A stretch of 64,000 nt of DNA. It comes from a virus. Taxonomy: Duplodnaviria > Caudoviricetes. The notes below the pieces were generated by a model. That model was not told where the DNA came from. It saw only the letters and a program-made list of their open reading frames with translations, and did no database searches. The stretch is from IMG/VR virus record IMGVR_UViG_3300027760_000553, positions 1 to 64,000 of that record; one strand, 5' to 3'. The stretch's first letter is position 1. Each line of letters starts with the position of its first letter. Of this stretch, positions 2,828 to 45,773 are shown in pieces. Both the position numbers and the translations under genes were made by a program.

Positions 2828-3556
2828 TTATACCACGCTGACGTATATTGATTTGATAATTACTGATGCATCATAATCTGTACGTATTTGAGGGATTGCC
2901 CCATTACCCCAAATTTTTTGATTTTCAATAAATACATGTTGAGTTACAGTAATTGGATATGTGTGCTGATATTTGAGGGAACCAATAAATTGAGCAATAT
3001 CTAACTGGCTATTAGCAGAATAAGTTCTAACCCATACCTCTGTATTGCTGCTATGGGTTGTTAGTTCAAAACTGTAGGTTATAAAAACTTGAGAGCCTTC
3101 TTTTAACCCTTTAAAATTAAAAGATCTAGAGTGATCATTCCACAAAGATGTACAACCTTTTGGAATATATTTTTCATTTGAAAGTCCTTCAGAATTTAAG
3201 AATACTGTTACCCATCCATCATCTCCTTCTGAAATTCCAAGTTTTATTGGTTTTTCAATTTTGTTAGTATAAGAAGCCCACCCTGCTTGTTGACCTGAAG
3301 AGGATAGACTGCTAAGTCCATCTGCCCCTTTTGGTCCCTTTTCACCTTTTGGTCCAATGTTTCCCGTGAAACCTTGTTCTCCTTTTTCTCCATCTTTCCC
3401 ATCTCTACCTGCTGGTCCTTGAGGACCTACTGGGCCAGGTACTGGAAGAAAAGAAAGTACATTATCTTGAGAAGCACCAGGTTGAGTTTGTTGAACTTGT
3501 GCTGCATAACTTGATTTTTGAGCACCAGGGAAATCCATAGATTTAGAAACAGCCAT
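2828..3556 (-). CDS. Collagen triple-helix (Gly-X-Y) fibre protein
   Basis: GPVGPQGPAGRDGKDGEKGEQGFTGNIGPKGEKGPKGADG. Confidence 0.8.
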   Translation of the reverse strand: MAVSKSMDFPGAQKSSYAAQVQQTQPGASQDNVLSFLPVPGPVGPQGPAGRDGKDGEKGEQGFTGNIGPKGEKGPKGADGLSSLSSSGQQAGWASYTNKIEKPIKLGISEGDDGWVTVFLNSEGLSNEKYIPKGCTSLWNDHSRSFNFKGLKEGSQVFITYSFELTTHSSNTEVWVRTYSANSQLDIAQFIGSLKYQHTYPITVTQHVFIENQKIWGNGAIPQIRTDYDASVIIKSIYVSVV

Positions 3557-7622: not shown

Positions 7623-7651
7623 CTGTAAATGTCAGACCCCCCTGCTATACT
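7623..7651 (+). promoter_or_regulatory. Early promoter with ATGTCAG spacer element
   Basis: CTGTAA-ATGTCAGACCCCCCTGC-TATACT. Confidence 0.65.
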
Positions 7652-7707
7652 TACAGTATAAAGAAAAACAAGAGGTAAAGAAATCCTCTAAAGAAAGGTG
7701 GTCTAAA

Positions 7708-7887
7708 ATGACTACACTAGAAATAACAAAGTGCGTAGAGCACACTCCTAATAAATCTGCTATCTCAGAATACGCAGATACACAATTCACATTCTGTGAG
7801 TCTTGTGAAAATAACATTGAGCGTTGGTATAACGATACCGACCCAGAGCGTCTACCTATGTGGACAGAATGGAAGGTGTCTAAGTAA
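7708..7887 (+). CDS. Small Cys/His zinc-binding protein, paralog of 8894..9073
   Basis: GAAAGG RBS; CVEH...QFTFCESCENNI...MWTEWKV. Confidence 0.65.
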   Translation: MTTLEITKCVEHTPNKSAISEYADTQFTFCESCENNIERWYNDTDPERLPMWTEWKVSK

Positions 7888-8051
7888 TGGCTACTGTAAT
7901 TGACAAAAACGAATTCTATTGGATTTGGGACATCTCGCACTATTGTTGTAATGAAGTACAATTCCGCTACCAATGTAAAGCGCATAGCGAACTAATGGGT
8001 TGCTACTATTGCGAATTTGATTACTCTAAAGAATGTGAGTGTGCCGAATGA
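7887..8051 (+). CDS. Small Cys-rich protein, paralog of 9073..9258
   Basis: YCCNEVQ...CKAH...GCYYCEFD...ECEC. Confidence 0.6.
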   Translation: MATVIDKNEFYWIWDISHYCCNEVQFRYQCKAHSELMGCYYCEFDYSKECECAE

Positions 8052-8810: not shown

Positions 8811-8839
8811 GGGTAGATGTCAGACCCCTCTGTTATACT
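8811..8839 (+). promoter_or_regulatory. Early promoter with ATGTCAG spacer element
   Basis: GGGTAG-ATGTCAGACCCCTCTGT-TATACT. Confidence 0.6.
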
Positions 8840-8893
8840 TACTAGTATAAAGATTGAAAAAGAAGTAAATCTCATAAAGAAAGGAAGTCCAAA

Positions 8894-9073
8894 ATGACTT
8901 CACTAAACACAATAGTATGCGATACGCATACACCTCAAATGTCCGCTATCTCATCTCACAACGATGAGCAATTTACATTCTGCAAAATGTGTGAGCAAAA
9001 TATCTCACGATTTTGGTTAGAATTTGGTGGTGACCGCTTAGATATGTGGTCAGAATGGAAGGTGACTAACTAA
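8894..9073 (+). CDS. Small zinc-binding protein, paralog of 7708..7887
   Basis: Manual translation MTSLNTIVCDTHTPQMSAISSHNDEQFTFCKMCEQNISRFWLEFGGDRLDMWSEWKVTN. Confidence 0.65.
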   Translation: MTSLNTIVCDTHTPQMSAISSHNDEQFTFCKMCEQNISRFWLEFGGDRLDMWSEWKVTN

Positions 9074-9258
9074 TGAGTACACCTACACTTATTCTTTCTC
9101 ATATGCCTTTAACAAAAGTTTTCTTGCGTGGCACAAAACAATTCTTGTGTTGCGAGGAAATGCAAACCGCAATTTATTGCGATGAACACTTTGAATTTCA
9201 GGGTTGCCAATATTGCGACTTTGACCTATCTGCCTCAGAATGTGAGTGTGAAAACTAA
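9073..9258 (+). CDS. Small Cys-rich protein
   Basis: ORF track; LCCEEMQ...CDEH...GCQYCDFD...ECEC. Confidence 0.6.
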   Translation: MSTPTLILSHMPLTKVFLRGTKQFLCCEEMQTAIYCDEHFEFQGCQYCDFDLSASECECEN

Positions 9259-10689: not shown

Positions 10690-10869
10690 ATGATGACACG
10701 CAAGGACTATGTAGCAACTGCTGAAATTCTTTCATCTTTCAAAGATTTGATAGGTGATGAATTTACTTTTCACGATTTAGTTGATGAGTTTGCTTCTATG
10801 TTTGAAGCAGATAATGAACGCTTTGACTCCCAGAAATTTTTTGAAGCGTGTAACAAAAATAATTACTGA
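10690..10869 (+). CDS. Hypothetical early protein
   Basis: Manual translation MMTRKDYVATAEILSS...FEADNERFDSQKFFEAC. Confidence 0.6.
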   Translation: MMTRKDYVATAEILSSFKDLIGDEFTFHDLVDEFASMFEADNERFDSQKFFEACNKNNY

Positions 10870-10873
10870 AATG

Positions 10874-10901
10874 AAATCCTGAGCAAGATCTAAAACTGCT
10901 C
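10874..10901 (+). ncRNA. Repeated H-type pseudoknot, copy 1
   Basis: AAATC-CT-GAGCA-A-GATCT-AAAAC-TGCTC. Confidence 0.6.
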
Positions 10902-10995
10902 AATTTTTGGCCAGCGTGTCGTCCACAGACTTATCCACAGGCTTTACGTGTGATTAAAAACACACCCATTATTTCCCAGATTTAGGGCTTTGAGT

Positions 10996-12911: not shown

Positions 12912-13065
12912 GCCTAATGGAATTATTAGCAATAGTATTGGTAAGCATAACCTTGCTTATCTTGTTTGACTCCCCCTTTTAGAAAGGGTGTCCCAAATGT
13001 CCGTTTTATCCCCTAGAAATGTGAGGAAGGTCACAAAAATAAATCTAAAAAATGCCATAAATAAC

Positions 13066-13094
13066 TGGAAAATGTCAGTAGGAAATGTTATACT
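13066..13094 (+). promoter_or_regulatory. Early promoter with ATGTCAG spacer element; CRP-type box upstream at 13020
   Basis: TGGAAA-ATGTCAGTAGGAAATGT-TATACT; TGTGAGGAAGGTCACA. Confidence 0.65.
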
Positions 13095-13128
13095 TGATAC
13101 ATACAACAACAACAAAAGGAGAAACACA

Positions 13129-13293
13129 ATGTCAGTAGCAACAGCAACATACAAAGTAGGAGATACCTACACAACACAGAAGTCAAAGGTTACAGGAACT
13201 ATCGTGGAAATCAACCCACAAGCAAATGGTAATGTTCGTGTAAAGTTAGATGTCAATGGTTCACACCGCTACACAACTTGGACGGCTAAGTAA
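13129..13293 (+). CDS. Small SH3-like hypothetical protein
   Basis: AAAGGAG RBS; MSVATATYKVGD. Confidence 0.6.
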   Translation: MSVATATYKVGDTYTTQKSKVTGTIVEINPQANGNVRVKLDVNGSHRYTTWTAK

Positions 13294-13302
13294 TCTAATC
13301 AG

Positions 13303-13331
13303 TATTTCCTGAGTATGAAATAAAACTGCTC
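13303..13331 (+). ncRNA. Repeated H-type pseudoknot, copy 2
   Basis: TATTTC-CT-GAGTA-T-GAAATA-AAAC-TGCTC. Confidence 0.65.
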
Positions 13332-13373
13332 AACACCCCCAACTAAAACCCCACAAAAGAAAAGAGAAAACAA

Positions 13374-13796
13374 ATGGCAAGAGGCAAAGCAATCTCAGTA
13401 AAAATCCCTACACAACGAGTAATCGCAGGACTAGAAGCATCACTAGCAAAACTAGAGATGGACTACGCATCACAAGAAGCAAACGAAGCAAAGTATCAAG
13501 AACTACACAAGGCTTGGAAAGATGAAATTGGTAAGTGGGCTATTGCCAACTACGCAAAGTCAGAAAACCTACGCACAAACTATCGTTCTTGGAACAACAC
13601 TCTCAATGTTGATTTTGACATCATCACAAAAGAGGGAACTTTCCCTGCTGAACCTGAAAAGGATTTTGAGGTTATTCACAATCACACCTATAAGGAAATG
13701 AAAGATGAAATGACTAACGCAATTCGTATCCTAAAGATGACAGATGAGGAAGTAGTTTCCACATCAACTTATCAAGCGGTTGCTCGTTATCTCTAA
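13374..13796 (+). CDS. Hypothetical coiled-coil protein
   Basis: ORF track. Confidence 0.65.
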   Translation: MARGKAISVKIPTQRVIAGLEASLAKLEMDYASQEANEAKYQELHKAWKDEIGKWAIANYAKSENLRTNYRSWNNTLNVDFDIITKEGTFPAEPEKDFEVIHNHTYKEMKDEMTNAIRILKMTDEEVVSTSTYQAVARYL

Positions 13797-13805
13797 ATAA
13801 ATAAA

Positions 13806-13832
13806 CGACCTGAGCAAGTCGCCAAACTGCTC
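13806..13832 (+). ncRNA. Repeated H-type pseudoknot, copy 3
   Basis: CGAC-CT-GAGCA-A-GTCG-CCAAAC-TGCTC. Confidence 0.65.
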
Positions 13833-14019
13833 ACACAACTAAATAAGATTAGGGTAAGAGGCTCAGCGCCTCTCCTATGTTCGCCAGGCTGATTAGGGCG
13901 ACAATAGAAATACTATAGAGCCACCTTATTGGGCAGGTGTAAGAACCCATACGAAACAGATCCAGTTTGAGAGTGTTCTCGGATAATGTCGTAAGTAAGA
14001 ACTCTACCCTTCGGGGTCC

Positions 14020-14048
14020 TTGACAATGTCAGTGGCCACGAGTACAAT
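14020..14048 (+). promoter_or_regulatory. Consensus SigA promoter with ATGTCAG spacer element
   Basis: TTGACA-ATGTCAGTGGCCACGAG-TACAAT. Confidence 0.75.
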
Positions 14049-14079
14049 TGAATTAACCAACTACAGAAAGAGGCCCCCA

Positions 14080-14511
14080 ATGGACCAACAAGATATACCA
14101 ACACTAACAGGCACAGTCAACGCAACAGAAGAGTTTCTTCGTGATTCACTGGCCAAGGCAACATTGCGTGTAACTCAACTAGAGGAGCACATTCAGAAAG
14201 TAACTCAGCGTTCATATGCAGATTCTGCAGATAAGAATCGTATGGTAGAAGCAATGCAAGAGTGGACCTTTGAAGCACTTGAGCAAGGAACTATCAATGA
14301 ATCAGAAGCAGAAGAAATTGCTGAGATTATGGGCTTTGAATTAACAAAAGAATTCGAAGTTGAAGTAACAGTTCTTTATTCTGTTACTGTTAATGCACGT
14401 ACAGAAGAGGATGCACAAAATGCAATTCACGATATTGATTTTGATACCGTGCAATACAATTCAGATTCAATCGGGTACCTATCGTCTTCAATTGATAGAA
14501 TAGATATTTAG
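14080..14511 (+). CDS. Acidic hypothetical protein
   Basis: ORF track with refined start; C-terminal VNARTEEDA motif. Confidence 0.6.
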   Translation: MDQQDIPTLTGTVNATEEFLRDSLAKATLRVTQLEEHIQKVTQRSYADSADKNRMVEAMQEWTFEALEQGTINESEAEEIAEIMGFELTKEFEVEVTVLYSVTVNARTEEDAQNAIHDIDFDTVQYNSDSIGYLSSSIDRIDI

Positions 14512-14525
14512 TAGGGGGCTACTAA

Positions 14526-14553
14526 TAAACCTGAGCACGTTTACAAACTGCTC
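14526..14553 (+). ncRNA. Repeated H-type pseudoknot, copy 4
   Basis: TAAAC-CT-GAGCA-C-GTTTA-CAAAC-TGCTC followed by a U tract. Confidence 0.65.
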
Positions 14554-14664
14554 ATTTTTTATTTAAATTTGCCAGCCCATTTTTTATAAATGTCAAGCGA
14601 CACGCCGATGTGTTTAAGATCACACCTAAAAATGTCCATATTGTCTATGTTTAACTATCCCGAT

Positions 14665-14693
14665 TTGCATATGTCAGCCCAGACTGCTACACT
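14665..14693 (+). promoter_or_regulatory. Early promoter with ATGTCAG spacer element
   Basis: TTGCAT-ATGTCAGCCCAGACTGC-TACACT. Confidence 0.65.
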
Positions 14694-14724
14694 TAGAATA
14701 TCAACAACAGAAAGAAGGAAAATC

Positions 14725-15747
14725 GTGGCTCACGACTTAGAAACACAAAACGGCAAAACCTCATTCGCATCATTCAGACAACCTGCTTGGCACGGATTAG
14801 GAACAGTCTTTACAGAAGAAAAAACAACCGCAGAAATGTTAGAGGCTGCAAATCTTAATGGGTGGAATGTTCGCCTTGAAGATTTGGAAACCCCTACACA
14901 TCTAACAAGCGACAAGGCATACCAATATGTCTTGCGAACAAACCCTACCGATAACACACAAACCGATATTCTCGGAATCGTTGGTGAGCGTTATCACCCA
15001 TTGCAGAATGAAGACCTATTCTCATTCGGTGATAATATTCTTGACGGTGGTGGTCGTTGGGAAACTGCTGGGTCAATCAAGGGTGGTCGTGTCGTGTTCG
15101 GTGCATTAGCATTAGAGCGTGAAACAATTCTTGACCCTAATGGTGTAAGTGATAAGGTAAAAACTTATTTGCTCATCAACACATCTCACGATGGTTCTAT
15201 TGCTATTCAAGCAAGTATCACACCCGTTCGTGTTGTGTGCGCTAACACTCTCAACCTTGCTCTCGGTGGCGTAGGTCGTAAGAAGAATAAGGGAATCAAG
15301 CAATCATTCAAGATTCGCCACACACAAACCGCTAATGGTAAAGTTCAAATTGCTCGTGAGACTCTTGGTCTTGCTAATGCTTATATGGACGAATTTGATA
15401 TTATGGCTAAGGCTATGATTGAGAAAGAGGTCAATGCGATTGACTTCAACAAAATCATTCTTGCTGCATATCCTAAGCCAGAAAAAGATGCTAAGGGTGC
15501 TTTCAAGAAATGGGAAAACAAGGTAGATGTCATCAACGATATTTACACAGGCGAGTTCAATGGAATGATTGCGGGTAATGCGTGGGGTGCGTTCAATGCA
15601 CTAACTGAGCGCCTTGACTGGTATCGTTCTGCTCGTGGTGGTTCTAACGAATCCATTCTTGCATCAGCATCAGGATTTGACCCTGCTATCAACGCAGAAA
15701 AAAATCGTTTGCTAAAAGTTGTGCAAGGCGTAATGTCTCTCGCATAA
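14725..15747 (+). CDS. DUF932 family phage/plasmid protein
   Basis: AWHGLG, ETAGSIKGGR, YLLINTSHDGS, TPVRVVCANTL, IRHT motifs; GTG start after GAAGG. Confidence 0.85.
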   Translation: MAHDLETQNGKTSFASFRQPAWHGLGTVFTEEKTTAEMLEAANLNGWNVRLEDLETPTHLTSDKAYQYVLRTNPTDNTQTDILGIVGERYHPLQNEDLFSFGDNILDGGGRWETAGSIKGGRVVFGALALERETILDPNGVSDKVKTYLLINTSHDGSIAIQASITPVRVVCANTLNLALGGVGRKKNKGIKQSFKIRHTQTANGKVQIARETLGLANAYMDEFDIMAKAMIEKEVNAIDFNKIILAAYPKPEKDAKGAFKKWENKVDVINDIYTGEFNGMIAGNAWGAFNALTERLDWYRSARGGSNESILASASGFDPAINAEKNRLLKVVQGVMSLA

Positions 15748-15753
15748 TAAAAA

Positions 15754-15781
15754 AATTCCTGAGCAAGAATTAAAACTGCTC
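15754..15781 (+). ncRNA. Repeated H-type pseudoknot, copy 5
   Basis: AATTC-CT-GAGCA-A-GAATT-AAAAC-TGCTC. Confidence 0.65.
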
Positions 15782-15790
15782 TCCATAACT

Positions 15791-15864
15791 GGAGTGTTAG
15801 CATAGTTGGTTAATGCGCTACCCTGTCACGGTAGAGATCACGGGTTCAAGTCCCGTACACTTCG
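15791..15864 (+). tRNA. tRNA-Asp(GTC)
   Basis: Acceptor GGAGTGT/ACACTTC; anticodon arm CTACC-CTGTCAC-GGTAG; T arm GGTTCAAGTCC. Confidence 0.92.
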
Positions 15865-18008
15865 CAATTAAATAAATCGGCCAGCAGTGTGACCAAGATA
15901 ACATTTTTGCAAACATTCGATTACGAAGGGCCTTGACTTTTCCCTAAATTTCTGCGATAATTAGTATATGACCCAACAAGTTGCAATATATGAAATGAAC
16001 TACTCCTGCTCTCCTGGTGGCGTTGACTGCTGGGAAGCAACCATTCAAGGATATGGGACAAGCACTACTGCCTCTGACTTTAAAACTGCTGGAGAGGCCC
16101 TTAATTGGGTTATTGACAGACACCCTGACGAAGTGCTAGAATTGGTAGTAACATCACTACCTGCCTATGAAAAGGAATATGTATGACCCAAACAATATCA
16201 GACCCAATGCTACAAGACTACTATTCTTGTGATCTTGCTATCTCTATTACAAATATCAAGGCTAAGAATAGACACCACGCAGAAGCCGTTATGCAAACCT
16301 TCATAGATGAGATTGGCAAGATAATGACTGATGAACTTAGTTGGGATGACGCTCAATGGGATATAGAGGAAAATGTATTCCTACCTGAACTTGGAGAGTG
16401 GCATACAAAGTGAATACCATTGACGAACTAATCAATGAAATATATGAAAGCAATTTCTCTCACTTAGAGTTTGAAGAAAATATGGGTGGAGATGCTTGCG
16501 ACTGCCATATCCACACTACACTAAACACTATTGCCCACTATGCTGGAATTGAGGTAGGAGAATGAAGGTTAGAATCAGTCTTGAACAAACCATAGATATA
16601 GATGATGCTATGTCTAATGATATAGGGTTTGAACTCTATGGTCCACCTGATATGAGTAATGAGGATAAGGTTGATTATCTAATTGCCCGATTTGCTGAGG
16701 ACATAGATACTATGGTAAAGTACGATGAAGTAATGGGCAACATCTCAGTAGAATACATAGAGGACTAGATGTTAGGCTATACTGAAACTGATATTGCAGT
16801 AATGACAGATGCTATGGAAGATGCTATCAAATCAGGTAGACTCTCTTCTGAGGTAGTAGATGGTTTAGAAAAGGCTCAATCATTCCTTGATGGTTTATGG
16901 GCAGAAGGGTACTTTGACTAATGTGGAGTAAGTATACATTTGTTTGTGACCCTGATGAGTGTGATGCTCTTCTTGAGTTTACCGCCAGGGACGGATACGG
17001 ATTCCCCAATGGATCTGTAGAGATGAAATGCCCTTGTGGAAGAATGATGAACTATATTAGTTATGAAGATGCTTGGGAACCGATCATTACAGATGTGAGC
17101 AAGGTCACACCCGTAACAGTTGTAAAAATCAACACTAACCCGTATAATTAATACTATGGACCTAAATACACTTAAAGAATATATACGCTTACACGCCATA
17201 TCCCTTGAACAGGATTTGGAAAACGAGGACGGTGCTGATAGCATTGTTCCTTACCTAGAAGGTGCAATTCATGTATCCCGTCACTATTTGGAGGTAGCAG
17301 GTGAATAATATAGAACTTGACCCATACCTAATGAAACAAGTAGAAATGGGTATGGACGGAGCAGACATCCTGCACGGACACCTAAAGACCCTTATGTATG
17401 AGGCTGAGCAAGTTCTTGACCGTTGCATTGAGGCAGAGGAATACTCAGAGGAAGCCATGGACTCTATGGCTCGTACAGAAGCAACGGGATACTTAGACGC
17501 CCTTTCTGAGGTATATGCATTAACTTATGCTATTGCATTTGCCAAGGAAGATGTTAAGAACCGTAAGGAGATTCTTGGTGGATAACTTTATTGAGATGAC
17601 GGAAGATGAGTGGTTTGACACTTATAAGCCTATTAAGAATCATCTAGATGAGAATGCTAGTTTTGATGGGCATATGTTTGAGACCTACGATGGGGAAGTG
17701 GCCTTTGTAAAAGAACAAGACCCTGCCTATATCTGGATGTATGGTGATGGTGACGACGGTGGTAGTTACATCTGGAACGGATGGCACATCGTAAATAGAA
17801 TAGGATACTTTATCACTTCCGTACCCTGCCCTCCTGACACGACTATTCAGGTCTTGGTCAGTCATAACTGGTTCTATTGTGAGAACTGCAGCGCTGAGTT
17901 TGAAGACCCTGATAATATAATCAGAGATGCCTTTGATGAGCACGATTTGGAAAAATGCCCAGAATGTGCTACACTTGATGAAATGACCCTAGTAGGAATG
18001 GATAAAAA

Positions 18009-26719: not shown

Positions 26720-26793
26720 GCACCAGTAGCCAAGTTGGTTAAGGCACCGAACTCATAATTCGGCTATCGTAGGTTCAAGTCCTACCTGGTGTA
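26720..26793 (+). tRNA. tRNA with CAT anticodon (elongator Met or Ile2)
   Basis: Acceptor GCACCAG/CTGGTGT; anticodon arm CCGAA-CTCATAA-TTCGG. Confidence 0.9.
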
Positions 26794-26797
26794 CGAT

Positions 26798-26871
26798 GCG
26801 GATGTTGCATATTGGTAGTGCCTCTGCCTTCCAAGCAGAAGGGGTGAGTTCGATTCTCATCATCCGCTCCA
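26798..26871 (+). tRNA. tRNA-Gly(TCC) with encoded CCA
   Basis: Acceptor GCGGATG/CATCCGC; anticodon arm TCTGC-CTTCCAA-GCAGA. Confidence 0.92.
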
Positions 26872-26872
26872 A

Positions 26873-26945
26873 GTCTCCATGGTCTAGTGGCCTAGGACTC
26901 CACCCTTTCACGGTGGCAACACGGGTTCGAATCCCGTTGGAGATA
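26873..26945 (+). tRNA. tRNA-Glu(TTC)
   Basis: Acceptor GTCTCCA/TGGAGAT; anticodon arm CCACC-CTTTCAC-GGTGG. Confidence 0.92.
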
Positions 26946-26954
26946 CAATATCAT

Positions 26955-26996
26955 TCCTAGATCGTCTAACGGCAGGACAGGGGCCTCTCAAGCCCT
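26955..26996 (+). pseudogene. Truncated tRNA (5' half only, CTC anticodon)
   Basis: D arm GTC-TAACGGCAG-GAC and anticodon arm GGGGC-CTCTCAA-GCCCT; no T arm or 3' acceptor strand. Confidence 0.6.
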
Positions 26997-27010
26997 TATA
27001 AACCTATTAC

Positions 27011-27083
27011 ACCTCTGTAGTTCAGTGGACAGAACGATGGACTTCTAAGCCATGCGTCGCAAGTTCGATTCTTGCCAGGGGTA
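27011..27083 (+). tRNA. tRNA-Arg(TCT)
   Basis: Acceptor ACCTCTG/CAGGGGT; anticodon loop CTTCTAA; T loop GTTCGATTC. Confidence 0.88.
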
Positions 27084-27112
27084 CAACATGATATACTTTT
27101 AACGGAGGGCAT

Positions 27113-30367: not shown

Positions 30368-30391
30368 GCTTATCATTATAGCATAGTAAGT

Positions 30392-30479
30392 GAGCAGTTT
30401 TTTACAGTCATGCTCAGGACTATACCAGTTATTTAGTGTCGCTGTCTCCCCCGACATTTTTCCTATTCGGAAAAGTCCT
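30392..30479 (-). ncRNA. Putative ~88-nt small RNA ending in pseudoknot copy 6
   Basis: Own TG-A-TATAAT at 30485-30490; hairpins UUUUCC/GGAAAA and UGUCG/CGACA; TATAGTC-CT-GAGCA-T-GACTGTA-AAAAAC-TGCTC. Confidence 0.55.
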
Positions 30480-30537: not shown

Positions 30538-31239
30538 ATGGATTCACGTAAACTTGAAAATGAAAAAAATAGCATTACAGAAAGTAGAAATTTTAATAAA
30601 TTTAAATATACGTTGCTTGCCCCTGGAGTACACATCTATGATAATGTTTGGGATCAAGGAATGGATTTCATGAAGCAACTAGAAGACAAGGGATCTTTTG
30701 TTAGAGAAGATTATATTGTTGACTCTGAGGGTAATAAGATTCCAAAAGAGGTTGGGAAGCGTGGAGTAAGCACATGGGTAAAAAGACATCAAGATCCTCA
30801 AGGTGCTGCACTTATTGCTAACGCTTTTGAGGAAGTTATAGACTCTTATTTATGGCATTATGATTTAGATCCAAAAAGTAGGGAAGAGTGGAGAATCAGC
30901 AAGTACACTGATGGAGATTATTTTGGAATGCACCCTGATGACTCTTATGGAACTCCAAGAACAATATCCATGGTGTATTATCCAAACGATGATTACGAAG
31001 GTGGAGAACTTGAATTCATTCATTTTGGTGTAAAGGTTAAACCAAAAGCAAATCAACTTATAATATTCCCATCTTCATATATTTACGAACATAGGATAAC
31101 CGATATTGGTGCTGGAAATCCAAGATACACAATCGTGTCTTTTCTTTCAAATATAACACAAAAAGAAAGAAACGAAAGACTTAAAGATCTTCCAAATCCT
31201 TATAAAACAGATTTAAAGTATATCTCAGAAATTAAATAA
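30538..31239 (+). CDS. Prolyl 4-hydroxylase-like 2OG-Fe(II) oxygenase
   Basis: HPDD...YPNDDYEGGELEF...FPSSYIYEH...RY. Confidence 0.85.
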   Translation: MDSRKLENEKNSITESRNFNKFKYTLLAPGVHIYDNVWDQGMDFMKQLEDKGSFVREDYIVDSEGNKIPKEVGKRGVSTWVKRHQDPQGAALIANAFEEVIDSYLWHYDLDPKSREEWRISKYTDGDYFGMHPDDSYGTPRTISMVYYPNDDYEGGELEFIHFGVKVKPKANQLIIFPSSYIYEHRITDIGAGNPRYTIVSFLSNITQKERNERLKDLPNPYKTDLKYISEIK

Positions 31240-33582: not shown

Positions 33583-33867
33583 TTATTTATCCATCGTTAA
33601 ATATTGCCAGGTATTGGTCCAGTCTTGTTTTTCTTTATGAGAATTAAACTCTTTTGAAATAGTACCATTTTCTAAATATATACCGCCCCACACACCCCAC
33701 TCTTTTCCAGAGATGCCATGTGCAAAACAAGTTTTTGAAACAGGGCAACTAGAACACAACTTGTCTATTGCTAACCTCAAATCAACTTCATCTTCATATT
33801 TTTCAAAAAATATATTTGTATCATATTCAAAACAAGCCCCATCATCTTTCCATGCATGTCTATTCAT
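33583..33867 (-). CDS. whiB: WhiB-family Fe-S transcriptional regulator
   Basis: Four Cys (AC...CSSCPV..C) and GVWGG. Confidence 0.9.
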   Translation of the reverse strand: MNRHAWKDDGACFEYDTNIFFEKYEDEVDLRLAIDKLCSSCPVSKTCFAHGISGKEWGVWGGIYLENGTISKEFNSHKEKQDWTNTWQYLTMDK

Positions 33868-38714: not shown

Positions 38715-39374
38715 TCAAACTTTGTTTAAATCTTCAAGGTATCTTGTATTAAAGCGATTGGCCCAGAAAGACTGATAAACAGTACCTTGGTCTCCATTGT
38801 CCTTTTTAATGGTTAGATGTGGGTGCTTATTTATTAAATAATTTATTTGACCTAGTTTTGGCTCTTGAAATCTTGTATCGACATACTGATATAAAGTATT
38901 CGGATTTTCAGCAATGTAATTTTTTACTTCTTTATCTAGATTAATAGGCCCATCATACTGCTGATTATCTGAACAAGTCCAATAAAACTTTATATCTTTA
39001 AACTTATTTTCAAGTTCTACTAAACTATTAATAAAGTCTTCAAAAATAAAATCAGAATTTTGTACTTCTGAAAACAAAATAAAAATAACATCTGGAGAAT
39101 ATTCAGCAAAATATTCTTTTGCATTTTTTATAACATTTTTATAGTATATATCTTTATCATCTAATGCAAAAAAATCAGAAACTAAAGTATGCTTTCTTAG
39201 TAGTTTGTCTAGTCTAAATGGCCAAACATTTTTAAAAGTTTCATCGTCATGCATTAGATCTGAAGATCCAAAATATACTACATGTAGTTTACTATCATGA
39301 TCCTTTTTAAATTCTTCACACATATAGCCATGAGTATTTTTTGTTCCATCATATTTGCTTAATACTTCTGTCAT
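38715..39374 (-). CDS. Degenerate SGNH-like hypothetical protein
   Basis: N..GY...F...HVVYFGSS; weak similarity to 27814. Confidence 0.4.
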   Translation of the reverse strand: MTEVLSKYDGTKNTHGYMCEEFKKDHDSKLHVVYFGSSDLMHDDETFKNVWPFRLDKLLRKHTLVSDFFALDDKDIYYKNVIKNAKEYFAEYSPDVIFILFSEVQNSDFIFEDFINSLVELENKFKDIKFYWTCSDNQQYDGPINLDKEVKNYIAENPNTLYQYVDTRFQEPKLGQINYLINKHPHLTIKKDNGDQGTVYQSFWANRFNTRYLEDLNKV

Positions 39375-40810
39375 TTATTATAATCCATTCCTGTTAAAAT
39401 TTTAAAGTCGTATTCTTTTTCCCAATTTAAAATATCGTTGTTATCGTTTAATAAAGGTTGACCCTTAATATTCAGACTTGTATTCAATAATAATGGTACA
39501 CCTGTTTTAAGATAAAACTTATTAATAGTCCTCCACAAACCTCTATGCTGATGCTTGTTTACGGTTTGCACCCTAGATGTACCGTCAGCATGGACTACAG
39601 ATGGAATCTTTTCTGGTTGTAAACATTTAACTGTGTACTGCATATAAGGGCTTGCAAAGTCCATATCAAACCACTCAGAAGCACACTCCTCCATAACTAC
39701 TGGAGCAAATGGTCTAAACAACTCTCTTTGTTTAATTAAATTAACTTTATCTTTAATGTTTGGATCTCTTGGATCTGCAAGAATACTTCTATTTCCTAAT
39801 GCTCTTGGACCGTATTCTGCTCTACCTGATGCTACTGCCACAATTCCATCTTTTAATATACCGTCCACAATTTGCTGAACAGGATACTCTCCACCAAGAT
39901 CGTACCCCAAGTATGGATCTTTCCACTCAATATGTTTTCCATATAGTGCTGCTGCTGCTCCCAAAGAACTTCCAGCATCTCCAGGGTTAGGCATGATCCA
40001 AATCATATCAAATATCTTCCAAAGTAAAGTATTTGCAGAAGAGTTTAACGCACATCCACCCATAAAAACCAAATTCTTTTTACCAGTCATTCTTTGTGCC
40101 ATACGCATAAAATCGTTAAGCCTTTGCTCGTATACCATTTGTACTGACGCTGCTATGTCAAATTTATCTTCTTCTGAAACCCATCCCCAGTCAGTAATTC
40201 CCTTATGAAGGTTATATTTTTGTTGATCGTAATGTGGAAAATATTCATCTACCTTTTTGTAATACTTTGTCCAGTCTCCGTATGCTGCCATACCCATCAT
40301 AATATATTCTTCTTGGTTTGGCATAAGTCCAATCAACTGCGTGAAGGCTGAATAAAATAATCCAAAACTGACTGGATAGTTTTGCTTGTATTTTAACTTA
40401 ATTTTATTTCCTTCACCTGTCCAAATTGTAGAAGTATTGTATTCTCCAATAGCATCTAGGACCACAATCACGGCATCATTAAAGTCACTGGTGTAGTAAC
40501 CTGCTGCTGCATGGGAATAGTGATGACTAAAAGATTTTCTTGGAATACCAGGAAGTTCAAACCTTGGCTTCCATTCCCCAGATCCACCCCTTAAAGCCAG
40601 TCTGGAGGCCTTTAGGAGGGGCTTTTCGTAGTAAGCAATGTGATCTGGTCTGCCGTACTGTAAAGCATCTTTTATTAAACTATCATTCACATACCAATCA
40701 TTTTTTTGCTTACTATATCTTTCAGCATGCCCTGCAAATAATATTTTTTCATCTTTAATTAAGGATACAGAAGCATCATGCGATGTTTCATTTATTCCAA
40801 GAACTATCAT
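39371..40810 (-). CDS. Carbamoyltransferase (NodU/CmcH family)
   Basis: SHDAS, HHYSHAA, GGCALN, EYGPRALGNRS, FRPFAP, LLNTSLN. Confidence 0.92.
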   Translation of the reverse strand: MIVLGINETSHDASVSLIKDEKILFAGHAERYSKQKNDWYVNDSLIKDALQYGRPDHIAYYEKPLLKASRLALRGGSGEWKPRFELPGIPRKSFSHHYSHAAAGYYTSDFNDAVIVVLDAIGEYNTSTIWTGEGNKIKLKYKQNYPVSFGLFYSAFTQLIGLMPNQEEYIMMGMAAYGDWTKYYKKVDEYFPHYDQQKYNLHKGITDWGWVSEEDKFDIAASVQMVYEQRLNDFMRMAQRMTGKKNLVFMGGCALNSSANTLLWKIFDMIWIMPNPGDAGSSLGAAAALYGKHIEWKDPYLGYDLGGEYPVQQIVDGILKDGIVAVASGRAEYGPRALGNRSILADPRDPNIKDKVNLIKQRELFRPFAPVVMEECASEWFDMDFASPYMQYTVKCLQPEKIPSVVHADGTSRVQTVNKHQHRGLWRTINKFYLKTGVPLLLNTSLNIKGQPLLNDNNDILNWEKEYDFKILTGMDYNK

Positions 40811-41514
40811 TCTTCACCATTGGATAATCTTTTAGTGTCAAAATCAATATTGTGATACCAGTTTGGCAGAGCATATCTTGGACCTTTTGTAACTGGATAC
40901 ACCTCATGAACATATAAAAAATTTGAAGGGAAAAACAAAATACTACCAGCAGCAGGTTTAAACTTAATTCCTGAATGTTTAAATTCTATTTCTCCACCTT
41001 CATAATCATCATTGAGGTAAAGCAGCACGGATAAAACACGACTGCTGACACCCTGATCTTGATGGGCTGGAAGATGTCCACTTTCATCATATTTTAATAG
41101 ATGCATTGTGTGTTCTCTAGACTTAATGTTTTTTTCTGCAAATGGATAAATTGCAGTTGAGTAGTGCTTTAATGTTGAATCTAACGCCCCAAATAATTCA
41201 GAAGATATACTTAACTGTTCATTAAAGTATGGGTCACAACTAGAAATATCTTTTACCTGTGGAATAAGTTTTTGCCAACAAAACATAAGTTCATTTGAGC
41301 CATTGTTATACGTCCACTTTGTCCAAGGACCCACACACGTATCTTCCAACTGACCATCTTCAACATACATTTTGTCTAGATTTTCTATTTTTTCTATAAT
41401 TGATTTAGGATCTTTAATTACATCTTTATAATAAACTAATCCTAAATCTAATATCTCAAAATTAAAGTTTTGCAAGATGGTACTCCCTTGCCATCCATTT
41501 AGGATTTTTTTCAC
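40807..41514 (-). CDS. Prolyl 4-hydroxylase-like 2OG-Fe(II) oxygenase
   Basis: AHQD...YLNDDYEGGEIEF...VHEV.PVTKG.RY. Confidence 0.85.
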   Translation of the reverse strand: MKKILNGWQGSTILQNFNFEILDLGLVYYKDVIKDPKSIIEKIENLDKMYVEDGQLEDTCVGPWTKWTYNNGSNELMFCWQKLIPQVKDISSCDPYFNEQLSISSELFGALDSTLKHYSTAIYPFAEKNIKSREHTMHLLKYDESGHLPAHQDQGVSSRVLSVLLYLNDDYEGGEIEFKHSGIKFKPAAGSILFFPSNFLYVHEVYPVTKGPRYALPNWYHNIDFDTKRLSNGEE

Positions 41515-42064
41515 CTATCATAAAGTCTGGATCTGCATGTTTTGGCAAACTTGTATGCATGTATAGGCCAGTAAATCTATGACCGCTTGTTACTTCTGTA
41601 ATGCCATGAATATATTCACTTCCAGAACTTGGAAAAAATACTGCAGAATATTGCTTTGGTTGATACTCAAATCCTTGATTTGGGAAATAAATTTTTCCTC
41701 CAGTGTATTCAGATTCATGGTTTAAATACATTATTGTGCTCCACTCAATAAAAGGTTCTGGGCCTTGAGCGTCTAAATGCAACTCTCCCTTAGTGCCCTC
41801 TGTCCAATGTGAACCAAATGATTTGTATACATATATTGGGTTTAAAAAACCATTGTCTTGTCTGTGTACCTCATTTGAAATGTTTCCATACCTAACCATT
41901 ATATCCATAACTATTTTATTATATGGTAATGATGTTCCTCCATATCTTTGTGCATAGTATGCGGGATAAGGATTTCTTTCTGCAAATGGATCTGTCTGCT
42001 GATCGATCAAAGTCTTTGCGTCTTCTGGACTAATAAAGTTTTCTATTATTTTTATTCTGTGCAT
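41462..42064 (-). CDS. Prolyl 4-hydroxylase-like 2OG-Fe(II) oxygenase
   Basis: LHLD...YLN...GG.IYF...IHGITEVTSG.R. Confidence 0.85.
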   Translation of the reverse strand: MHRIKIIENFISPEDAKTLIDQQTDPFAERNPYPAYYAQRYGGTSLPYNKIVMDIMVRYGNISNEVHRQDNGFLNPIYVYKSFGSHWTEGTKGELHLDAQGPEPFIEWSTIMYLNHESEYTGGKIYFPNQGFEYQPKQYSAVFFPSSGSEYIHGITEVTSGHRFTGLYMHTSLPKHADPDFMIGEKNPKWMAREYHLAKL

Positions 42065-44990: not shown

Positions 44991-45716
44991 TTAATTATCC
45001 TTAATAATAAAGTTACTAACAACAAGAACTATCCTTGTGTTATCATTTATTTGTTTTATTTTATCATGGTTTGCTACAAAATCTATATCACCAATCACAG
45101 AAAACTCTGTAGGCAGTGTCATGTTGCAGCAAATTGCAATCTGCTTTTTTACTTTTTCAAAATTATAATTTTTAATTAAATAATCAAGTACTTCCATAAG
45201 ATTATCCGCATATAGTGGTGTTACAAATGACCCTGCAGTATCCTTATGTTTCTTTAAGTTTTCTATAACTGTATGGATACCATGCGATATAGTGATATCT
45301 CCACCAACAAAGCCACTAATTACATAGGCATTAAGGAATGCGTTTGGTCCAGGTACAACCACATACTCAAAGTTATTTTTAATGCATTCCTGAATAAACT
45401 GACTTCCTGGATCTGCAACCCCAATTAGACCTTCTGATGCTACAAGCAATACTGTTTTTCCAGATTCAATATATTCTTTGAAAAGTTTGATTTGATCTGG
45501 ATCAGCATATGTTGAATCTTTGCTTTTTAAAACAACTATGTCTTTTTTAATTTTAAGTTGTTTTATTATGTTTATAGCATTAATCTCTGAATCATCACTA
45601 AAAATAACATCTGAACTAACAAAATAGTCTAGCATTCTTTGAGACATATCGGAAATATTACCAATATGCATTGATCCAACAATTAATTTACCACTCTTTG
45701 CTGAGGTGGCAGGCAT
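44991..45716 (-). CDS. rsmI: RsmI-like tetrapyrrole-methylase-family methyltransferase
   Basis: GKLIVG...IGN..D.S.R; ASEG...ADPG; VVVPGPNA; start codon uncertain. Confidence 0.7.
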   Translation of the reverse strand: MPATSAKSGKLIVGSMHIGNISDMSQRMLDYFVSSDVIFSDDSEINAINIIKQLKIKKDIVVLKSKDSTYADPDQIKLFKEYIESGKTVLLVASEGLIGVADPGSQFIQECIKNNFEYVVVPGPNAFLNAYVISGFVGGDITISHGIHTVIENLKKHKDTAGSFVTPLYADNLMEVLDYLIKNYNFEKVKKQIAICCNMTLPTEFSVIGDIDFVANHDKIKQINDNTRIVLVVSNFIIKDN

Positions 45717-45773
45717 CGATCCTGCGACATCCGAATTAACAGTTCGGCACTCTACCATCTGAGTTACACCCCA
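45701..45773 (-). tRNA. tRNA-Asn(GTT)
   Basis: Acceptor TGGGGTG/CACCTCA; anticodon arm CCGAA-CTGTTAA-TTCGG; atypical T loop ATCGATG. Confidence 0.85.

Follow-up and report, generated by a model that had tools for sequence, protein, structure and literature searches.

The 284-nucleotide (nt) gap between two small plus-strand genes without assigned function, located in a viral DNA window of 64,000 nt (the whole stretch analyzed, positions 1 to 64,000 of IMG/VR record IMGVR_UViG_3300027760_000553), harbors a run of structured and conserved elements at positions 13806-14017. Comparison with related loci shows the gap to be a mosaic of modules, here termed A, B, C with the pseudoknot PK1, D with a terminal hairpin, and the predicted promoter E, and shows the predicted H-type pseudoknots A, PK1 and D to be preserved by compensatory changes. 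We lean toward the reading that the modules are intergenic punctuation and leader elements of an early phage operon, five of which stand in a row at 13806-14017. The features, with block limits from blastn of the gap against relatives in parentheses, are:

13374-13796, plus strand: upstream (UP) gene, 140 amino acids (aa), no Pfam or PHROG family
13806-13833, plus strand (block A 13797-13846): module A, copy 3 of its type, an H-type pseudoknot of the CCUGAGCA...UGCUCA type starting 9 nt past the UP stop codon
13806-09/13818-21 and 13811-16/13828-33, plus strand: module A helices CGAC/GUCG (first helix, S1) and UGAGCA/UGCUCA (second helix, S2)
13850-13877, plus strand (block B 13848-13879): module B, a two-tier hairpin
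13850-53/13874-77 and 13857-62/13868-73, plus strand: module B outer tier UAGG/CCUA and inner tier AGAGGC/GCCUCU, loop UCAGC
13880-13921, plus strand (block C 13880-13921): element C, nearly invariant 42 nt
13881-13901, plus strand: C box 1, UCGCC 13881-85, AGGCUGAUUAG, GGCGA 13897-901 (UCGCC-N11-GGCGA)
13908-13921, plus strand: C box 2, AAAUACUAUAGAGC, preceded by a semi-variable spacer
13922-13949, plus strand (block PK1 13922-13949): PK1, a compact H-type pseudoknot directly abutting C
13922-26/13935-39 and 13930-33/13946-49, plus strand: PK1 helices CACCU/AGGUG (S1) and UGGG/CCCA (S2)
13950-14005, plus strand (block D 13950-14005, plus hairpin to 14017): module D, a 56-nt pseudoknot motif with invariant loops, in the order CGAAACAG, S1 AUCC, AGUUU and the S2 5' strand, S1' GGAU, invariant linker AAUGUCGUAAGUA, S2 3' strand AGAACUCU
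13960-63/13981-84, plus strand: D helix S1, AUCC/GGAU
13970-74 and 13977-79/13998-14000 and 14001-05, plus strand: D helix S2, AGAGU and UCU/AGA and ACUCU
14006-14017, plus strand: tetraloop hairpin ACCC-UUCG-GGGU, beginning at the base after the last pair of D and abutting promoter E
14020-14079, plus strand (block E 14014-14079): promoter E, predicted sigma-70-like, TTGACA 14020-25, 17-nt spacer with ATGTCAG, TACAAT 14043-48, 11 of 12 consensus matches
14080-14511, plus strand: downstream (DN) gene, 143 aa, no family

Retrieval from IMG/VR via the two flanking proteins yielded 160 related loci, many contigs being present in both sets; with the window itself (L001) they make up the 161 loci of the order count, and all comparisons together drew on more than 300 related loci from uncultured phages. 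Among the 112 loci having both genes, the UP-DN gap ranges from 123 to 2075 nt, and blastn of the gap against the 160 loci returned separate blocks (query positions 1-50, 52-81, 84-127, 155-220 and 218-283) whose order varies. The commonest module order is UP-C-E-DN (30 loci), in 31 loci D is located upstream of the UP gene, in five B stands ahead of A, and the order seen in the window recurs only in L006. Since the modules occur apart, reordered and beside other genes, the 210 nt do not constitute one conserved unit.

Module A belongs to a family with six copies in this genome, of the form N3-5 C / C / UGAGYA / N / G N3-5 / (N)AAAAC / UGCUCA. In copy 3 the first and third loops (L1 and L3) are C and CCAAAC, and a conserved tail, CACAACUAAAUAA, reaches to about 13846. 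The remaining copies are:

10876-10902, plus strand: A-type copy 1, AUC/GAU, 7 nt past the stop of the open reading frame (ORF) 10690-10869; AUUUUU follows
13304-13332, plus strand: A-type copy 2, AUUUC/GAAAU and UGAGUA/UGCUCA, 10 nt past the stop of ORF 12988-13293
14526-14554, plus strand: A-type copy 4, UAAAC/GUUUA, then UUUUUUAUUU
15754-15782, plus strand: A-type copy 5, AAUUC/GAAUU, 6 nt past the stop of ORF 14590-15747 and 9 nt before tRNA-Asp
30391-30417, minus strand: A-type copy 6, with a longer third loop, between divergent gene starts and not after a stop codon

All five plus-strand copies begin 6-14 nt downstream of stop codons, and the copies are dispersed, 501-2430 nt apart, with no tandem array. 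A script search of the relatives returned 291 distinct A-type copies in 279 loci with 94 different S1 helices, and compensated variants of S2 were found as well (UAAGCA/UGCUUA and GGGCA/UGCCU). In a MAFFT alignment of 140 copies, preselected by a script requiring pairing, 89.0% of the cells are paired versus 74.2% in shuffles and 30-35% in slid controls, and the covariation score of 0.44 (0.167 in shuffles) was reached by none of 500 shuffles; given the preselection, the evidential weight lies in the variety of pairs and not in the percentage. A count with less selection gave an S1 of at least 4 base pairs (bp) in 480 of 1034 distinct CTGAGYA contexts (382 loci), as against 378 of 5170 in the control in which the upstream 7 nt were shuffled. 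With respect to genes, 130 of 282 A-type copies start 3-18 nt past a same-strand ORF stop, none nearer than 3 nt, and 27 of 291 lie within a same-strand ORF. A recoding signal was ruled out for the A-type pseudoknot because its distance to the stop is not fixed (3-18 nt), and a reading of TGAGCA...TGCUCA as a DNA operator cannot explain the covariation in S1. Many A-type pseudoknots precede C-rich, G-poor tracts, e.g. ACACCCCCAACUAAAACCCCAC, that lead to the next gene (13333-13373 in the window, and many relatives); such tracts might be leaders that load Rho or recruit ribosomes.

Between copy 2 and the UP gene behind it there is no promoter-like site, and in four relatives (L199, L200, L263 and L272) a gene starts 25-45 nt past the A-type pseudoknot. 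Promoterless genes thus follow several A-type copies, which argues that the pseudoknots are read through and are not efficient terminators. Lake metatranscriptome libraries contain the gap stretch: in runs X1 and X2, identical unbroken contigs cover 13200-14517 and stop at 14514-14517, just before copy 4. As a weak hint, these contigs agree with the modules being read through and with an end close to copy 4, a copy with a U run.

Element C is nearly invariant in the 45 distinct sequences reached via the flanking genes, and boxes 1 and 2 never vary. Its spacer changes from ATAG to ACAG, ATAT or ATAA opposite an invariant CTAT (CUAU) with no compensation, and a second C hairpin (AUAG/CUAU) is therefore unsupported. 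By this comparison C is conserved as sequence and not as structure, and PK1 begins 0-1 nt after it. The exact 20-nt C core is present in at least 118 viral contigs, one copy apiece, and C is likewise single copy in this genome. The edges of C are sharp: gene ends, hairpins, A-type pseudoknots or D may stand upstream, and several different genes occur downstream, DN following in 70 of 106 distinct contexts. Only two contigs of metagenome-assembled genomes (MAGs) among 185,579 species genomes contain C, which rules out a host-derived attachment core. C is absent from five of five complete relatives when up to 2 mismatches are allowed, and it is thus accessory and neither an origin nor a packaging site.

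PK1 (loops L1 UAU, L2 C, L3 UAAGAA) represents a family defined by fold. After GAGC, a perfect compact H-type pseudoknot was found 0-1 nt downstream in 48 of 49 distinct sequences; shuffles reached the same score in 70 of 1960 cases. The family comprises more than a dozen S1 helices and eight S2 helices, with conservation of the A-rich third loop (UAAGAA, AAAGAA). In an unstructured MAFFT alignment of 46 sequences (L098, L147 and L165 were dropped as being without this pseudoknot), 81.6% of the cells are paired versus 58.6% in shuffles, 7 of 9 pairs are changed on both sides, and the covariation score is 0.656 versus 0.273 in shuffles, with none of 500 shuffles reaching it. The number and kind of pseudoknots after C vary between close relatives, and up to three stand in a row (L002, L034, L049). 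An invariant block that ends exactly where a variable, fold-conserved RNA begins is as expected of a promoter followed by a 5'-terminal structure. Two side observations concern the same place: L098 and L147 carry a different, unclassified structured segment (GGAAACAUAGGUAGUU...ACCUAAUGUCC) after C in the place of PK1, and L109, L173, L175, L185, L229, L230, L241 and others carry an operator-like palindrome, GTGAT-N4-7-ATCAC, and a TCTCAATATGTAAGAT box after the C cassette. This palindrome and TCTCAATATGTAAGAT module precedes a TTGCAT...TGTCAG...TAGAAT promoter and is absent from the gap of the window.

Module D was represented by 61 distinct copies gathered by an exact 18-nt core, so that columns 39-56 are invariant by construction; its linker is also invariant in 23 distinct copies found by blastn. 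In the 61 copies, 100% of the S1 cells are paired, with GC, AU, UA and CG variants and three of four pairs changed on both sides, and in S2 (AGAGUGUUCU/AGAACUCU, containing a 2-nt bulge) four pairs are changed on both sides, including GAGAG/CUCUC, GAGGG/CCCUC, GCUAG/CUAGC and GUGAG/CUCAC. The covariation score is 0.284 versus 0.125 (none of 500 shuffles), and 94.4% of cells are paired as against 34-54% in slid controls. A covariance model of D (R1) returned 28 matches in 81 sources, all on the plus strand and all at E 1.9e-14 or better, with nothing weaker up to E 1; the window is matched at 13950-14008 with E 1.9e-14. In 106 distinct contexts, D is followed within 50 nt by the promoter spacer motif in 73 and by a G+C hairpin in 61, and some of the remaining contexts run directly into a ribosome-binding site. 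The linker of D holds a minimal reading frame, AUG-UCG-UAA (13986-13994), which may be a chance occurrence.

G-U pairs are frequent in these helices, U-G filling 21 of 46 cells at the PK1 closing pair and, at one pair of the A-type alignment, 37 of 140. The opposite strand would have A-C mismatches at these places, indicating that the structures belong to the plus strand, which is the coding strand of both flanking genes.

Every pairing listed for 13806-14017 by the initial annotation, which had been made from this sequence alone, is present in its place. The copy 3, CACCU (PK1) and AUCC (D) pseudoknots are backed by covariation in relatives, the check that the annotation had itself proposed. 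For the GAGGC/GCCUC hairpin of module B and the terminal ACCC-UUCG-GGGU hairpin, pairing is retained with altered letters in alignments judged by eye: B occurs with UUGAG/CUCAA, UUAAG/CUUAA and GGGGCU/AGCCUC, and hairpins at the position of the tetraloop hairpin include CCCCC-CUUC-GGGGG, CACC..GGUG and CCC-GCAA-GGG. The UCGCC/GGCGA stem of C exists as described and is invariant, giving covariation nothing to act on, and the proposed pairing of its loop GGCU with AGCC is unsupported, the fourth pair being lost in most relatives (AGC then A, G, U or C). The view that the stretch contains no credible ORF is borne out, no protein being encoded there. The ORFs overlapping 13806-14017 are a minus-strand 63-aa GTG ORF (13913-14104) and a TTG extension of the DN gene, with no others, and the shuffling of modules among relatives makes both unlikely to be coding.

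Downstream of D, the tetraloop hairpin is predicted to stack directly on the second helix of D. No U run follows either this hairpin or copy 3, the tails within 13806-14017 reading CACAAC and CCUUGACA, and a terminator scan listed no plus-strand site within 13797-14020. Module E is 80-92% identical in relatives, and the DN leader and Shine-Dalgarno sequence come after its hexamers. The promoter spacer motif AATGTCAG-N10-TAYAMT recurs in the window at 7625-7654, 8813-8842 and 14026-14048.

We propose that the early plus-strand gene block may use short structured RNA modules between its genes. Compact pseudoknots with A-rich third loops would act in cis on the mRNA, shielding cistron ends from exonucleases and/or insulating cistrons, and such a role as cis-acting mRNA barriers is probable. 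C is most likely a promoter, or failing that a protein-recognized RNA or DNA site. With TACTAT as -10 element, transcription would start at about 13922-13923, and the transcript would begin with PK1 as a 5'-terminal stabilizer and here continue through D and the hairpin into the DN gene. D would be a separately conserved regulatory RNA, usually placed between a stop codon and the hairpin and promoter of the next gene, and it is probably bound by a protein.

Several findings weigh against this proposal, beyond the selection of the A-type and D copies noted above. The compared sequences are mutually related, and the shuffle controls consequently overstate significance. A T-rich run (at least 5 T in 9 nt) follows only 65 of 291 A-type copies, and a terminator role is thus partial at best. 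The library data were contigs in all four runs, in which starts, ends, strand and level are unreadable, and DNA may be present in them. C matches a sigma-70 promoter poorly: TACTAT (13911-16) fits TANNNT and conservation stops 5 nt later, and yet the sigma-70 scan lists no site at 13880-13921 and no fitting -35 hexamer was seen by eye. C is single copy, whereas a promoter class normally recurs; 42 invariant nt exceed what a promoter usually needs; and Pfam/PHROG scans show no phage RNA polymerase or sigma factor. A T7/SP6-like promoter (ACTATAG) was rejected for C, there being no single-subunit RNA polymerase in the same scans; ACTATAG occurs eight times in the genome in no common context, and a 1244-aa orphan protein looks lectin-like in the Atlas and has no PDB relative.

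A serious rival to the promoter reading, which we regard as a real if lesser possibility, is that C acts as RNA, its hairpin and single-stranded box being recognized by a protein of the phage or host. It could be where an endonuclease processes the RNA, with PK1 left at the 5' end so created, or, like the put and nut antitermination sites, a cis-acting element that modifies RNA polymerase and stands ahead of structured barriers. C often lies so close behind a gene end or another pseudoknot that an upstream promoter would have no space, in which case it would be transcribed by read-through, and the RNA-library contigs pass through it. Consistent with this alternative are also the poor sigma-70 match, the 42 invariant nt and 5-bp stem, which suit a protein-RNA site, and the abutting PK1, which would suit a product of cleavage no less than the start of a transcript. 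Against it, the AUAG/CUAU hairpin shows no compensation and the first stem is invariant, hence also unsupported, no candidate nuclease or antiterminator was found in Pfam/PHROG scans, and conservation stops exactly at the start expected for a transcript from TACTAT.

It is unlikely that three bolder claims hold jointly, namely that compact pseudoknots after stop codons, resistant to nucleases and ribosomes, have replaced ordinary hairpin punctuation across a widespread freshwater actinophage lineage, that a mobile C-driven tandem-pseudoknot RNA of 60-100 nt serves as a decoy in trans for a host RNase or for an RNA-guided or abortive-infection defense, and that D is a new ribozyme or ligand-binding class. 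Distinctly unlikely, too, is that C and what follows it form a mobile small-RNA gene acting in trans with C as its promoter, the transcript being PK1-D-hairpin here (~96 nt) and PK1 plus an A-type pseudoknot in most relatives (~60 nt), where the pseudoknots might serve to decoy a host nuclease or a toxin of abortive infection. Antitoxin RNAs with pseudoknots exist, as do phage mimics of them, the C, PK1 and A-type cassette adjoins several unrelated genes and is accessory (missing in five of five complete relatives), and a T run ends some copies. However, the content after C varies from one to three pseudoknots or D, which argues against one specific trans-acting RNA, and a promoterless gene directly follows in several loci, making the transcript probably an mRNA leader. 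In addition, the copies are dispersed with no tandem array, and no discrete small-RNA ends were seen in the contigs, which cannot show ends.

That D constitutes a new riboswitch or ribozyme class, ligand-sensing or self-cleaving, appears improbable. Its covarying helices surround invariant single-stranded segments (CGAAACAG, AGUUU and AAUGUCGUAAGUA), the family is discrete and lacks weak relatives, and D sometimes lies immediately upstream of a ribosome-binding site. Nevertheless, a promoter motif separates D from the next gene in 73 of 106 distinct contexts, which places D in a 3' region, unlike a riboswitch. The adjoining genes are small and of unassigned function with no metabolic theme, and no Rfam model matches D. 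By eye, a likeness of D to hammerhead, pistol or hairpin ribozymes was rejected: CGAAAC and GUC are hammerhead-like, but there is no CUGAUGA box.

Judged from this one sequence the stretch is within chance, and it is the data from relatives that decide. The minimum free energy (MFE) z-score is -0.75 on the plus strand and -1.12 on the minus strand; two perfect compact H-type pseudoknots occur in 13797-14020, a number reached by 7 of 300 shuffles and by 57 of 285 natural 224-nt tiles of the window. MFE and centroid folds show no pairing between modules except weak long-range stems. ARAGORN found six tRNAs in the window, with no transfer-messenger RNA (tmRNA) and no tag peptide, and Rfam gave no tmRNA at gathering score in the window nor at E up to 10 in 13300-14500. 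At the latter threshold cmscan of 13300-14500 returned two chance-level matches, PK-IAV at 14390 and ceN65 at 14438, both lying beyond the stretch, with none for hammerhead, pistol, twister, hatchet, HDV-like, preQ1, SAM-II and other classes. The initial annotation had correctly noted the absence of tRNA-like ends, ARAGORN and Rfam finding none in the stretch; its suggestion of a tmRNA-like organization fails in both searches, and the ribozyme check that it proposed, performed with Infernal, gave no ribozyme or riboswitch match at E up to 10. The further reading proposed there, that 13806-14017 is one large structured noncoding RNA, is rejected as extremely improbable, also in a remotely tmRNA-like or a ribozyme form: five structured elements do stand head to tail without gaps, and L006 and an X16 contig share the C-PK1-D-E order, but the window's order occurs in two of 161 loci, one being the window, the modules occur alone and in other orders elsewhere, and the z-score, the want of strong inter-module pairing and the lack of any tmRNA, tRNA-like, ribozyme or riboswitch match all speak against a single RNA. 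The X16 contig (13880-14079) starts at 13879, the left edge of C, which is explained equally well by assembly-graph branching at the border of a shared element.

The modules resemble several known systems in part. REP/BIME hairpins, the repeated extragenic elements and intercistronic stabilizers of bacterial operons, are likewise short repeated structured elements just past stop codons in operons, present in many copies that share a conserved core and are traversed by RNA polymerase; they are simple palindromic hairpins, whereas the elements here are phage-borne compact H-type pseudoknots for which the protective role is proposed. Promoter-early stem-loop (PeSL) cassettes, conserved promoter and stem-loop modules in T4-type phages, also surround small early genes and delimit the mosaic segments shuffled between related phages, but the lineage here is actinophage-like and its modules include pseudoknots and an invariant 42-nt box. 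In dimensions the pseudoknots are close to those of luteovirus frameshifting, the preQ1-I riboswitch and the T4 gene 32 leader (4-6 bp in both S1 and S2, 0-3 nt in L1, 0-1 nt in L2, and 5-6 nt in an A-rich L3 such as UAAGAA or AAAAC). They differ in having no slippery site and no fixed spacing to a recoding site, in not being matched by preQ1 models, and in that general Pfam scans show no gene 32-like protein here.

Rho-independent terminators also lie at gene ends, A-type copies 1 and 4 have a U run, and the X1 and X2 contigs stop before copy 4; unlike such terminators, copy 3 and ACCC-UUCG-GGGU are without a U run, and promoterless genes follow several copies. Several pseudoknots in a row on one strand, here PK1 and D, are also found in the tmRNA pseudoknot string and in the tobamovirus 3' tandem pseudoknots; unlike tmRNA, there is neither a tRNA-like domain nor a tag reading frame. 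ToxI-like type III antitoxins consist of tandem repeats of ~34-36 nt beside a ToxN-type gene, whereas the copies here are dispersed; general Pfam scans of 98 ORFs, made without PADLOC, show no ToxN-type toxin family.

In these searches neither Rfam 15 nor 50,697 isolated-phage records contained a counterpart of the CCUGAGCA pseudoknot, the C-box and PK1 cassette or the D pseudoknot, the phage records giving no blastn match to 13300-14600. At the level of listings and abstracts, no description of these motifs was found in the literature. PMC10690425 states that Rfam is without a model for the gene 32 pseudoknot, and its 8,495 candidate RNAs from IMG/VR may include some of the present motifs.

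The virus record is 99.6 kb long with an estimated completeness of 90%; its first 64 kb form the window, which encodes WhiB, RecA, a DnaE-type polymerase, a primase, a helicase, a portal and a very long tail protein. The large terminase shares 54-55% identity with its counterparts in Streptomyces phages sized about 128-133 kb. This likeness and the WhiB gene underlie the actinophage assignment, and we read the source as an uncultured freshwater actinophage. The UP gene has 510 relatives among viral contigs. Elsewhere in the window, auxiliary genes of the kind typically found in large actinophages are located at 33583-33867 (minus strand), 39371-40810, 40807-42064 and 30538-31239; they encode a WhiB-like regulator, a carbamoyltransferase and several 2OG-Fe(II) oxygenases. 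The six tRNA genes found by ARAGORN are Asp (15791-15865), a cluster of Met, Gly, Glu and Arg (26720-27084) and Asn (45700-45773, minus strand). Periodic 12-nt repeats (GGTGTAACTGCx) and an ORF matching a collagen triple-helix repeat lie at 1-431 and 2828-3556 (minus strand), and two repeat families spaced 1186-1188 nt apart (including 7846-7894 and 9032-9080) suggest a tandemly duplicated early gene cassette.

The three motifs span hundreds of phage contigs derived from lakes. Their sharp-edged modules mark recombination joints of a mosaic early region, and D and the C box present small, concrete targets for biochemistry. If the proposed role is true, pseudoknots recurring as punctuation at gene ends would be an unusual way to secure mRNA stability or cistron insulation in actinobacterial hosts.

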